A stretch of DNA of 64,000 bases from a virus. The notes below the pieces were generated by a model. The model was not told the DNA's origin and did no database searches. It saw nothing but the letters and a program-made list of their open reading frames with translations. The stretch covers positions 24,947 to 88,946 of IMG/VR virus record IMGVR_UViG_3300009187_000021. The stretch is one strand, 5' to 3'. The position numbers were made by a program, and so were the translations under genes. Positions 42,498 through 45,757 of this stretch are shown one piece after another (the stretch's first letter is position 1; the number at the start of each line of letters is the position of its first letter).

Positions 42498-42986
42498 TTA
42501 TGCATAAAATATGTGTTTACCTATTTTGGTAATCTTCCGTTTCTTCCAGTGCGGATCAACGTATGTAGCATGATAATACAACGCATCGTTGAGTTTTGTC
42601 AAGCGGTATCCGTCGAACAGAACCTTTTCTGCTGCCGCTTTAGAATCAAGATATTCTTTTGAGTTTGTTGGTATTTGACGTTTATACTTAATACACACCC
42701 ATGAGAATTGGCAAGTTTTGTTTGTCTTTTGATATACAGTTCTACAGATATTATTTTTGAATAGACCAGAATTAACTCTATTCAACGTGACCTGTGCAAC
42801 TGCTAATTTACCTTTAAAAGGTTCAGACTCTGCCTCATAAAAAATATTGTTTGTTAGACAATTTAACTCTTTCTGTATGTTAGGAACTAAAGAGTATGTT
42901 TCTCGCACATTTGCTATTGTTGTAGCGTTCATTAAACCAAAAATGAGAAATGTTCCTAACAAGACTTTGATAGTCTTGTGTAACAT
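42498..42986 (-). CDS. Cell-wall hydrolase, SleB/Hydrolase_2 family
   Basis: CL..NIFYEA..E...GKLAVAQVTLNRV, CQFSW, ALYYHATYV.P.W, IG.HIFY; N-terminal signal/TM segment. Confidence 0.9.
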   Translation of the reverse strand: MLHKTIKVLLGTFLIFGLMNATTIANVRETYSLVPNIQKELNCLTNNIFYEAESEPFKGKLAVAQVTLNRVNSGLFKNNICRTVYQKTNKTCQFSWVCIKYKRQIPTNSKEYLDSKAAAEKVLFDGYRLTKLNDALYYHATYVDPHWKKRKITKIGKHIFYA

Positions 42987-43009
42987 TCGTTTCCTTATCG
43001 AGTTTTGAA

Positions 43010-43310
43010 AGTGGTAGGTTATTCTGTTACGAGGAAACCTACCGAAACCCTAAGCAGTGTTTAGGCTGCTAATGCGTATTCGCTATCATTTGCGTTTACT
43101 TGATTTATTTTTAACGACTGATATGTCGAGTAGCCAATAATTGTACTTATTACTCCGTCGAATCTAGTCAGGCCCATCAGAAGCATACTGTTTGGAACTT
43201 TTATTATGAGCATTGTTATCTCATTCACCAGTAGACAATACACTTCTGGTGGACCTGGTGGGATTCGCACCCACGTCCGAAATACCTTTCTAAAAATCAG
43301 TTTACTACCA
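43010..43310 (-). ncRNA. ssrA: Two-piece (circularly permuted) tmRNA gene; tag (A)ANDSEYALAA
   Basis: Acceptor piece comes first: GAC-GTGGG-TGCGAAT-CCCAC-CAGGTCC-ACCA (CCA ends at 43247). Intervening segment 43246-43176. Coding piece starts GGGCCTG-ACTAGATTCGAC at 43175 and pairs with CAGGTCC, including the G3.U alanine determinant. Tag codons at 43093-43061. Outer ends approximate. Confidence 0.92.
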
Positions 43311-43318
43311 TTGAGAAG

Positions 43319-43352
43319 TATTTAGTATATCAGGACTTGGCGAAGTTGTCAA
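43319..43352 (-). promoter_or_regulatory. Overlapping sigma70 promoter (TTGACA-17-TATACT) and late-like ACTAAATA upstream of the tmRNA gene
   Basis: TTGACA 43352-43347, TATACT 43329-43324, ACTAAATA 43326-43319. Confidence 0.75.
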
Positions 43353-45757
43353 GCACCAGTTACTATTCTCAAATTAAATTCTTTAGAAATTTCCGACAAA
43401 GTTGTCTTGTTTCTGATATAAATTGTACCGCTTGCATTTCTAGTAATATCATCTTGCGTTACCGTGAAAGTAATATATAGACCAATTCCTACAGTATAGT
43501 AGGCTGATTGTCCTGAACCTCCTTTATTAACGCCGTTAATATTGAAAGTCGTTTGACTACCTATAGCACCACCAGAAACAGAAACTTCATAATTCGTTCC
43601 TATTCCAGGCGTCAAAGTGTTAACATATTGAGTTGAACCAGATAACTTAACTGTACCAGCTGCTGATGGATCGCCACTAAAATCTCCTGATCCATCAATT
43701 GATCCATCGCCTCCTATGTACCATTTTATAGATGTTGGTGATATATTACCCTGATCATTCAAATAACTAAATGCCGCATCACTATCAAATCCTAATGCTG
43801 GGCCCGCCGACGTTGTAGTTATTGAAGAACTGGCAGAACTAGGTGAACTATCACCAACGGCATTTGTTGCTTTAACAGTAAATGTGTATGTTGTTCCCGC
43901 AGTTAATCCAGTTACATTAAATGTACCACCACTTGCTTGTGATAGTGTTGCAGTGATACTACCAGGACTGGAAAGTATCGTGTATGATGTAATAGGTGAG
44001 TTACCATTAGATGCTGGTGCAGAAAATGATACATCCGCAGTCGTTTGTCCTGTTGCTGTTGCACCTGTAATCGTTGGTGCACCAGGTACTGTAGGTATAG
44101 CATTCGTTGTCATTGAACCACTATCTGCACTATAAGAACCATTTCCAACAGAGTTAGTTGCTCTAACCTTAAAAGTATAAGATGTGGATGCCGTTAGTCC
44201 GGATACTGTAATTGGAGAACTAGATCCTGTACCAGTTATGTTGCCTGGTGTCGAGATTGCAGTATAACTAGTAATTGCAGCACCGCCATCGGAAGATGGT
44301 GCAGTAAATGATACTGATGCAGTTGTTGTTCCAGTAGGAATAGCAGCGCCAATAGTTGGTGCACCAGGTACAGTTGCAGCAGATGTTGTCGTTATTGAAG
44401 AACTATCTGCACTATATGAACTGTCACCAACAGAGTTAGTTGCTTTTACCTTAAATGTGTATGAAGTACCAGCAGTTAGACCGGTGATATTAATTGTACC
44501 TGATCCCGATTGACTAATTGTTCCTGTAATATTACCTGGTGTAGATATGGCAGTATATGATGTAATTGCAGCACCACCATTAGATGCGGGTGCACTAAAT
44601 GCTACAGTTGCAGTTGTCTGTCCTGTTGCAATAACAGAACCAATCGTTGGTGCACCAGGTACTGTTGCTGCTGATCCAGTAGTTATAGAAGATGTTGAAG
44701 AACTATATGCGCTATCGCCAACTGAGTTAGTTGCTTTTACTTTAAACGTGTATGTTGTTGAAGGTGATAATCCTGTGACTGTAATTATACCATTTCCTGC
44801 CTGACTTAATGTTCCAGTTATATTTCCAGGTGTAGATATTGCAGTATATGATGTAATCCCAGCACCACCGTTATTTGCAGGTGCAGTATATGATACAGTC
44901 GCAGATGTTGAACCAGTTGATGTTGCAACACCAATAGTTGGTGCACCAGGTACTGTTGCAACAGCCGATGTTGTTATTTGATTACTTGACGCACTAGAAG
45001 AACTATTACCAACAGAGTTTGTTGCATATACTGTGAATGTATATGGCGTATTCGAAGTCAATCCATTAACAGTAATAGTACCAGATCCTGATTGACTTAG
45101 TGTACCTGTAATTCCTTCTGGCGAAGAAACTGCCGTATATGATGTAATCATTGCACCACCATTTGATGCAGGCGCCGTAAACGATACTGTTGCTGAAGTT
45201 GAACCAGTTGATGTTGCAACACCAATGGTTGGTGCACCAGGTACCGTTGCTGCCACTGATTGTGATGTATCTTCAATGGTGACTGTAACACTAGTGGCAA
45301 CTATAGATCCAGATGTAGATCCAGTTCTAATATTAATAGTAAATGTTTGTGAACCTTCAGTTGAACTGTCCGCGACTGGTAATACTAAAAAAGAACCTAT
45401 ATTATTGTTAATCGTAAACGATCCACTAACAGAAGAAAAGTCTGCATCAGAAGTGGTTATATGATTTATTGTCCAATATAGTGTAGTTCCAGTTCCGACA
45501 AGTGTGGTTGCAATATAATATGCTCCAGAACCACCTTCGTTTATTGTACTACTATACGTCTGGAAAGAATAAGTTGGAGTTGGAGCAGGCGCATTTGATT
45601 TACCATAGAAATCTGTGGGCATTATCTCAGTAGAACCTGGCGTTGTTTTACCAGATAGTGTACGGACAGCAGTATCATTCAGACTAATTGTTCCTGACTG
45701 AGTGAGTTCTGTTCTAATATCACTTAATGATATAGCACCAGACGATGGTAAAGCCAT
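43349..45757 (-). CDS. Fibre-like virion protein with Calx-beta-like domain and five FN3 domains
   Basis: MALPSSGAISLSDI fibre-type N-terminus; INEG...TLYWTI domain; five VPGAPTI...ITSYT...YTF.V.ATN.VG repeats. Confidence 0.8.
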   Translation of the reverse strand: MALPSSGAISLSDIRTELTQSGTISLNDTAVRTLSGKTTPGSTEIMPTDFYGKSNAPAPTPTYSFQTYSSTINEGGSGAYYIATTLVGTGTTLYWTINHITTSDADFSSVSGSFTINNNIGSFLVLPVADSSTEGSQTFTINIRTGSTSGSIVATSVTVTIEDTSQSVAATVPGAPTIGVATSTGSTSATVSFTAPASNGGAMITSYTAVSSPEGITGTLSQSGSGTITVNGLTSNTPYTFTVYATNSVGNSSSSASSNQITTSAVATVPGAPTIGVATSTGSTSATVSYTAPANNGGAGITSYTAISTPGNITGTLSQAGNGIITVTGLSPSTTYTFKVKATNSVGDSAYSSSTSSITTGSAATVPGAPTIGSVIATGQTTATVAFSAPASNGGAAITSYTAISTPGNITGTISQSGSGTINITGLTAGTSYTFKVKATNSVGDSSYSADSSSITTTSAATVPGAPTIGAAIPTGTTTASVSFTAPSSDGGAAITSYTAISTPGNITGTGSSSPITVSGLTASTSYTFKVRATNSVGNGSYSADSGSMTTNAIPTVPGAPTITGATATGQTTADVSFSAPASNGNSPITSYTILSSPGSITATLSQASGGTFNVTGLTAGTTYTFTVKATNAVGDSSPSSASSSITTTSAGPALGFDSDAAFSYLNDQGNISPTSIKWYIGGDGSIDGSGDFSGDPSAAGTVKLSGSTQYVNTLTPGIGTNYEVSVSGGAIGSQTTFNINGVNKGGSGQSAYYTVGIGLYITFTVTQDDITRNASGTIYIRNKTTLSEISKEFNLRIVTGA

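Follow-up and report, generated by a model that had tools for sequence, protein, structure and literature searches.

A circularly permuted two-piece tmRNA gene of betaproteobacterial type, probably functional, in an uncultured freshwater T4-like phage

Introduction

Two-piece transfer-messenger RNA (tmRNA) is known from Alphaproteobacteria (the Caulobacter type; Keiler et al. 2000) and from a betaproteobacterial lineage (Sharkady & Williams 2004), both as cited in PMC9004378. In phages, Buchholz et al. 2022 described a two-piece tmRNA in the OM43 myophage Melnitz (Methylophilales) (PMC9004378). That study gives permuted calls for 53 unique phage tmRNA structures, most of them from phages of aquatic habitats; among 47 Melnitz-like contigs, 17 had such a call. 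Table S1 of the same work includes phages of Caulobacter, Synechococcus, Pelagibacter, Stenotrophomonas, Bordetella, Citrobacter, Cellulophaga, and others. A tmRNA database paper from 2025 counts 79 phage tmRNAs (PMC11915505). The subject of this work is a tmRNA (ssrA) gene of the permuted type found in a stretch of 64,000 nucleotides (nt), called the window below, which comprises bases 24947-88946 of the 88,946-bp IMG/VR virus record IMGVR_UViG_3300009187_000021; coordinates are given as window positions. Phage tmRNA genes of this type are already published and abundant, and the gene in the window is a good new example of them and not a new kind.

Melnitz and the Pelagibacter phages Mosig and HTVC008M resemble the window phage in being T4-like aquatic myophages that carry a complete permuted ssrA gene behind an early-type promoter and have no reported SmpB. 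The role proposed for the RNA of Melnitz-type phages, sustaining of hijacked translation or tagging of proteins (PMC9004378), is also similar to the one considered here. The Melnitz gene was reported as alpha-type with a 3' glutamine riboswitch and the Melnitz-type phages are marine, whereas the window phage is from freshwater, its gene is of beta type, and no riboswitch was found. The alpha tmRNA family (RF01849) shares with the window gene the permuted architecture and the predicted maturation into two base-paired pieces, but differs in model score (217 bits on the alpha model for one true alpha gene), in the T-arm (GGGGGCGGUACCC) and tags (ANDN...) of most sampled genes, and in position in the tree, where the separation has 100/100 support. 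Another close family is beta_tmRNA (RF01850). As in the window, its genes have the promoter first, then the acceptor piece (T-arm and CCA), then the intervening segment and the coding piece; the tag style, the post-tag hairpin with AACAGAA, and the side of the tree are also shared. The differences are the T-loop (UUCGAnU in bacteria, UGCGAAU in the window), the lack of the terminal helix and intrinsic terminator with a protein gene following directly, and the location on a phage instead of a chromosome.

Results and Discussion

Identification of the tmRNA Gene

A complete circularly permuted tmRNA gene lies on the minus strand of the window from about 43352 to 43006, promoter included. ARAGORN called a permuted tmRNA (tmRNA*) at 42970-43339 with the tag ANDSEYALAA*. 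When the window was scanned with Rfam release 15, the tmRNA_permuted model RF04321 matched with 125.7 bits (E = 3.7e-24, all model positions 1-213 of 213, curated cut-off 47 bits) and the beta_tmRNA model RF01850 matched from end to end with 113.3 bits (E = 1e-33, model positions 1-331, curated cut-off 84 bits), both exceeding their cut-offs at the locus; no riboswitch and no other Rfam family was found in the window. The detection of a tmRNA gene is far beyond chance. With good confidence, the locus can be considered a functional ssrA gene in the circularly permuted two-piece form of the betaproteobacterial type; the phage that carries it is an uncultured T4-like myophage from freshwater and appears to be lytic. 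In its core, the initial annotation of this DNA had read the locus as a phage two-piece tmRNA whose acceptor stem has alanine identity and whose tag, ending in LAA, is of the ClpXP type; ARAGORN, Rfam, covariation, and the phage neighbours support this.

Structure of the RNA

All parts of the RNA gene are coded on the minus strand. The acceptor piece (43247..43309), delimited by ARAGORN, Rfam, and pair counts, begins with the 5' helix strand GGUAG (43309-43305) and contains the helix 2a strand UAUUUCG (43284-43278), the T-arm GUGGG-UGCGAAU-CCCAC with a 5-bp stem and a 7-nt loop (43274-43258), the acceptor 3' strand CAGGUCC (43257-43251), and the discriminator A with the encoded CCA (43250-43247). 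It is followed by an intervening segment of 71 nt (43176..43246), recognized by folding and covariation and closed by the perfect 12-bp stem GAAGUGUAUUGU/ACAGUAUGCUUC. The coding piece (43006..43175; Rfam and pair counts) starts with the acceptor 5' strand GGGCCUG (43175-43169), which pairs with CAGGUCC and, together with the following ACCA, forms an acceptor stem like that of tRNA-Ala, including the G3.U70 pair and the discriminator A. Both the order of the halves, with the CCA end at 43247 preceding the GGGCCUG start at 43175, and the G.U alanine determinant, which is invariant in 12 of 12 relatives, had been noticed in the initial annotation and were found as it described them. The same is true for helix 2a, formed by UAUUUCG with CGGAGUA (43157-43151).

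Further along the coding piece there are the stretch CUACU (43133-43129) and the hairpin CGAC-AUAUCA-GUCG (43128-43115). The tag frame GCA AAU GAU AGC GAA UAC GCA UUA GCA GCC UAA (43061..43093) encodes ANDSEYALAA*, the tag that had been read from the sequence at first and that ARAGORN also gave, and its stop codon is held in a hairpin AGCAG/CUGCU (43070-43053). The UAAAC context preceding the resume codon is common to the window and the beta references. No papers were found in a full-text literature search for ANDSEYALAA, ANDESYALAA, and ANDENFALAA. The terminal hairpin that had been proposed is present at 43013..43043 as GGUAGGUU/AACCUACC with the conserved loop UCCUCGUAACAGAAU, and the 3' hairpin of the beta_tmRNA model matches here. 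By analogy with other family members, in which an equivalent GGGGNN/NNCCUU pairing covaries, a pseudoknot of AGGG (43051-43048) with the first bases of this loop, UCCU (43035-43032), is possible in the window. A pairing like PK1, between UAUCA in the hairpin loop and UGAUA in the tag, was also considered but dropped, since it is not preserved in the variant L025.

In the predicted fold of the precursor, the 12-bp stem stacks on the acceptor stem, and the two form an almost uninterrupted duplex of about 22 bp; the fold has z = -3.0 against shuffles. Removal of the 71-nt segment on maturation is predicted by analogy with bacterial two-piece tmRNAs.

The T-loop UGCGAAU had been pointed out as a variant. 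It is indeed present, but it is not unusual: this T-arm is also carried by the one-piece tmRNA of many Acidobacteria, Elusimicrobia, and candidate phyla radiation (CPR) bacteria and by the alpha-type gene of Rhodobacter capsulatus, and G at the second T-loop position was seen in about 29% of 87 permuted tmRNAs from an architecture-based sample of viral contigs. Judged from its distribution, the variant is a common one and appears compatible with normal function.

Relatives and Covariation

When viral contigs were searched for the exact pattern of this T-arm and acceptor end, at least 23 further ones were recognized, all with permuted tmRNA. Three further relatives are phage-like contigs binned into metagenome-assembled genomes (MAGs) of Bacteroidota. 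When IMG/VR viral contigs were scanned by architecture, the permuted two-piece form was found on at least 120 of them. The window gene and two divergent members of its family were also compared by blastn with 50,697 deposited phage genomes, and only T-arm-sized matches were obtained. Because no deposited phage genome resembles the gene beyond the size of the T-arm, the window gene is without a cultured representative, but of a known kind. In BLAST comparisons with distant family members and with the alpha reference, only the tRNA-like core and some short segments are alike.

The close group consists of 12 sequences including the window, with 85-95% identity. Eight helices (53 pairs) were mapped onto a MAFFT alignment of these sequences, and 98.3% of the cells form standard pairs. 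Twelve pairs are changed on both sides, a number reached in none of 500 shuffles; in a control with the 3' partners slid by 1-3 columns, there were 0-2 double-changed pairs and 34-47% pairing. The double-changed pairs are located in the acceptor stem, helix 2a, the tag-stop hairpin, and the stem of the intervening segment. In the acceptor stem, CAGGUCC/GGGCCUG changes to CAAGUCC/GGGCUUG, that is, G-C to A-U next to the G.U pair, and in helix 2a, UAUUUCG/CGGAGUA changes to UGUUUUG/CAGGGCA. The tag-stop hairpin of L022 and L023 has AGUGG/CCACU in place of AGCAG/CUGCU, by which the tag becomes ..RLVA. The T-arm is invariant among the 12 sequences, and the stem of the 3' hairpin varies by G-U changes and one double change. 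The tag frame is kept family-wide as AND..[Y/F][A/R]L[A/V]A.

The fold-back of the intervening segment, which had been predicted from the single sequence, is borne out by its 12-bp closing stem, in which 5 of 12 pairs are changed on both sides. The segment is 60, 71, 72, or 86 nt long in close relatives and up to 132 nt in distant ones. In L006 (12697-13082), L007 (3715-4100), and L013 (4138-4523), its interior is replaced by an unrelated sequence, giving 86 nt, and in L021 (137-495), it is shortened to 60 nt; in all of them, the 12-bp closing stem is kept and covaries. Because the stem covaries while the interior is replaced or resized, selection seems to act on the closing stem and not on the interior. 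As far as can be judged from these sequences, the spacer behaves like an exchangeable slot, and a selected closing stem would fit a processing signal.

The relative L025 (4961-5330) looks like a mosaic. In the T-arm, intervening segment, tag, and 3' hairpin, it is almost the same as the window, while its 5' leader and whole helix-2 domain are different and have the compensating partners UGUUUUG/CAGGGCA and GCUGU/ACAGC. This suggests recombination inside the RNA gene.

Assignment to the Beta Lineage

Lineages were defined by the Rfam models and by our own comparison, and the bacterial beta references were found via the tag pattern, then G538, and then samples of its order and a family. A separate permutation lineage had been suggested as possible for the gene, and comparison with the permuted-tmRNA models was proposed along with ARAGORN. 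On these models, the window scores 113.3 bits (beta), 87.4 bits (alpha, RF01849, cut-off 50 bits), and 29.4 bits (cyano, RF01851), the last failing the cut-off of 70 bits with only model positions 52-124 matched; the ARAGORN call is tmRNA*. Bacterial beta genes have 155-296 bits on the beta model and 49-87 bits on the alpha model, while the true alpha gene of Rhodobacter capsulatus has 216.9 bits on the alpha model. The 46 alpha-type genes in a sample of 151 Pseudomonadota genomes, in which no beta-type gene was found, have 35-72 bits on the beta model. As the alpha score of the window equals the top of the cross-scores of beta genes and the beta cut-off is passed, the window has the score profile of a diverged beta-type gene. 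No permuted tmRNA was found in the ~1-Mb genomes of the class of G004, which is uninformative for the lineage.

A maximum-likelihood tree was computed from 61 permuted genes, 25 of them alpha and 36 from phages, beta bacteria, and MAG contigs, without a cyano outgroup. The split between the 25 and the 36 genes has 100/100 support. Base composition alone does not explain this split, since both high-GC and low-GC bacterial beta genes are on the phage side. The reduced T-arm GGGGGCGGUACCC and longer tags beginning with ANDN are found in most of the alpha genes sampled, while the low-GC beta references have the tags ANDESYALAA and ANDENFALAA and the window has a tag of the 10-residue AND..YALAA type. 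The loop AACAGAA of the post-tag hairpin is found in the window clade and in six of six low-GC bacterial beta references, and the loop UUACC(C)AA in other phage members and in high-GC beta references. Because model scores, tree, T-arm and tag characters, and the 3' loop agree, the gene is assigned by sequence to the beta type, diverged from every sampled bacterial gene, and not to a new lineage; the suggestion of a distinct permutation lineage is not upheld. Close identity to a host two-piece ssrA had been named as something that would reduce the novelty of the gene, and no sampled bacterial gene is close to it.

The loop UUACC(C)AA is present in L008, L012, L015, L032, and L053, as opposed to AACAGAA in the window, L010, L011, and L042; the references compared are L169-L177. 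The two loop forms suggest more than one exchange between phages and beta bacteria, an argument from a character and not from a resolved tree. The beta-type permuted tmRNA is rare in its own order, with 4 of 151 sampled genomes in the order of G538. In the family of G615, it was found in 6 of 81 genomes, and all six carriers are small (1.6-3.0 Mb).

Promoter and Downstream Gene

A sigma-70-type promoter is coded on the minus strand at 43324..43352. It consists of TTGACA (43352-43347), a 17-nt spacer, and a TG-extended TATACT (43329-43324), matches the consensus in 11 of 12 positions, overlaps the end of the fibre gene, and is the only such site in 42800-43600. The 5' region of the Rfam beta_tmRNA model aligns to this promoter. 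TTGACA is kept in L006, L020, and L022, and L021, L023, and L024 have a weaker -35 element. From the position of these elements, transcription would start near 43317. A late promoter (CTAAATA, 43325-43319, lying over the -10 element) was considered as well but is not supported; the motif is not enriched in the window, with 6 found and about 13 expected.

Downstream on the same strand, a SleB-type cell-wall hydrolase gene of 162 amino acids (aa) was identified at 42498..42986 (PF07486, 86.6 bits; endolysin PHROGs). Its Shine-Dalgarno sequence AAGGAA (42996-42991) and ATG (42986) lie about 17-27 nt past the last hairpin of the tmRNA, and the gene start is conserved in L006, L021, L023, and L024. 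Bacterial beta genes and several other phage members have a 3' G+C hairpin with a U-run. As a terminator is absent in the window and the hydrolase start follows the last hairpin directly, read-through into the hydrolase gene is likely, and the tmRNA promoter may drive the hydrolase too.

Phage Context and Host

The viral record is about 53% complete according to CheckV. A gene for a fibre with FN3 repeats is directly upstream of the tmRNA gene, and the SleB-type hydrolase is directly downstream; the neighbourhood further includes baseplate and tail genes, PhoH, an exonuclease, and homologues of gp59 and gp32. Among cultured phages, T4-like myophages are nearest, with about 25% protein identity. 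No integrase domain was identified in the record or in four relatives, and no tRNA genes in the record. The metagenomes that contain DNA of the window are from freshwater and lakes and belong to about a dozen studies.

The bacteria that match the gene most closely in its characters have small genomes (1.6-3.0 Mb) and low GC and belong to one family in the order of G538. The three MAG-binned relatives, all on short contigs, were assigned to Crocinitomicaceae (L032), Haliscomenobacter (L042), and an uncultured member of Bacteroidetes (L053). Their genes are beta-type permuted, with the tags ANSEYALAA, ANDEQFALAA, and ANDDTFALAA, and phage genes, among them one of the same hydrolase family, are present on one of the contigs. 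Two of the three Bacteroidota MAGs also have a native one-piece tmRNA with the tag GESNYAMAA; the coordinates listed with the tmRNAs of these MAGs are G002:C93:36-425 and G003:C59:113116-113488. These contigs probably come from phages and were binned with the MAGs; the hint of a Bacteroidota host is weak because composition-based binning of low-GC phage contigs can explain it. If such a host is true, the cross-lineage reading is real; with a small-genome Burkholderiales host, the occurrence would be ordinary. In the Haliscomenobacter MAG, there is a second tmRNA_permuted match of 67 bits (G002:C1:132926-133161, L117) beside tRNA-like hits, for which ARAGORN gave no call.

It may also be speculated that the window clade is a beta sublineage maintained by phages and evolved separately from all bacterial genes, with a long, stem-closed, exchangeable spacer and a lost terminator, so that the precursor serves as mRNA leader of a lysis gene, and used in hosts with a differently tagged one-piece tmRNA. 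Its part on hosts is drawn from the three relatives binned with Bacteroidota MAGs. This proposal is tentative and, taken as a whole, rather unlikely.

Weighing of the Interpretation

Several observations count against a functional beta-type tmRNA. The single-sequence minimum-energy fold lacks helix 2a, and the T-arm appears in the centroid fold only. The score of 113 bits on the beta model is well under the 155-296 bits of bacterial beta genes, the last 9-bp helix of that model is deleted in the window, the intervening segment has 71 nt compared with 30-35 nt in low-GC bacterial beta genes, and the branching order within the beta-plus-phage side of the tree carries no resolution. There is no terminator-like site between the tmRNA hairpin and the hydrolase gene, and no RNA-seq run is among the datasets listed as containing the window DNA. 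Finally, five related viral fragments were searched along with the record for the SmpB domain (PF01668), and none of these sequences, which are 26-53% complete, contained it. The absence of smpB from the window, stated already in the initial annotation, thus extends to the whole 88.9-kb record, and the RNA would presumably rely on SmpB of the host.

The lack of SmpB in the phage record would also suit a decoy or modulator, an RNA which would be produced and possibly charged, yet would chiefly titrate host SmpB or redirect tagging, for example to destroy host proteins or damp trans-translation, in place of rescuing ribosomes. The tRNA-like-domain-only tmRNA of mycobacteriophage DS6A, as mentioned in PMC4131195, is a precedent, and selective tagging of host proteins was suggested as a possible role by the authors of the Melnitz study (PMC9004378). 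G at the second position of the T-loop UGCGAAU moreover gives it a chemistry unlike that of canonical UUCGA, but the same loop is present in the ordinary tmRNA of Acidobacteria, Elusimicrobia, CPR groups, and Rhodobacter capsulatus. An SmpB sponge would need none of the full tag frame, resume-codon context, and stop-codon hairpin, which are conserved and covarying, and a decoy is considered improbable. Slightly less probable still is a passenger, a bacterial beta-type ssrA captured, carried without benefit, and decaying. The terminal helix and terminator of bacterial beta genes are lost here, and tmRNA genes are classic integration sites of which fragments are often acquired by phages. Yet the gene has been kept whole in at least 12 diverged contigs, where substitutions are compensatory and the promoter is intact, its architecture recurs on at least 120 viral contigs, and no sampled bacterial gene is close.

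The 3' ends of ssrA are often targets of phage integration, and an attP site or integration scar could mimic part of a host ssrA with no expressed gene. The gene is complete, however, with both halves, tag, and promoter; a simple duplication of a 3' end cannot regenerate a permuted gene, the gene set is T4-like and lytic, and the integrase domain is missing from the record and the four relatives, which makes this origin very hard to credit. Equally remote is a protein of 69 residues (43270-43061, minus strand) that ends in the tag sequence, with no RNA formed. In the window, the tag frame is open for 76 codons upstream of the resume codon and contains a GTG-started open reading frame of 69 aa that passes through the T-arm and the spacer, but only 4-6 open codons precede the tag in L006, L007, L013, L020, and L025, the segment lengths (60, 71, 72, and 86 nt) differ by non-multiples of three, and substitutions compensate at the RNA level. 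As it is not conserved among the relatives, the 69-codon frame was rejected as a chance open frame, and the locus is read as an RNA gene.

Proposed Function

From the observed gene, its family, conservation, covariation, and phage context, we infer how a functional two-piece tmRNA would be transcribed, processed, charged, and used for tagging, and how the phage would benefit. Host RNA polymerase would start at the sigma-70 promoter and give a precursor of about 310 nt, and without a terminator the transcript would probably continue into the hydrolase gene. In the precursor, the acceptor stem would be lengthened by the covarying 12-bp stem of the intervening segment. RNase P could cut 5' of G1 (43175), and 3' trimming to the encoded CCA (43247) would free the 71-nt hairpin, leaving two pieces, the acceptor part with about 63-70 nt and the coding part with about 170 nt, held together by the acceptor stem, helix 2a, and the terminal helix. 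Alanyl-tRNA synthetase would charge the RNA via G3.U70 and A73, and host SmpB would bring the charged RNA to ribosomes stalled on broken mRNAs. Translation would then resume at GCA, append ANDSEYALAA, and stop at UAA, by which the ribosome would be freed and the tagged protein marked for ClpXP-type proteolysis. More capacity for ribosome rescue during degradation of host mRNA and falling host RNA synthesis is the likely benefit. Resistance to host RNase toxins, raised as a possibility in the initial annotation, would be a purely speculative addition.

The gene adds a well-supported freshwater example of beta type to the published two-piece tmRNAs of phages, and covariation among its relatives cleanly supports the structure, down to the closing stem of the discarded segment. 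This is useful for annotation and for the study of how phages sustain translation. The remaining questions, concerning host SmpB and proteases, co-transcription with the hydrolase, and transfer to hosts with one-piece tmRNA, are modest and partly raised in the literature, and the finding alone opens no new question.

A different arrangement was observed on L005, L009, L014, L018, and L026, which carry an identical phage permuted tmRNA with the alpha-like tag ANDNNASGFALAA, followed directly by tRNA-Arg(tct) and tRNA-Ile(tat). The 3' end of this tmRNA is probably set by tRNA processing.

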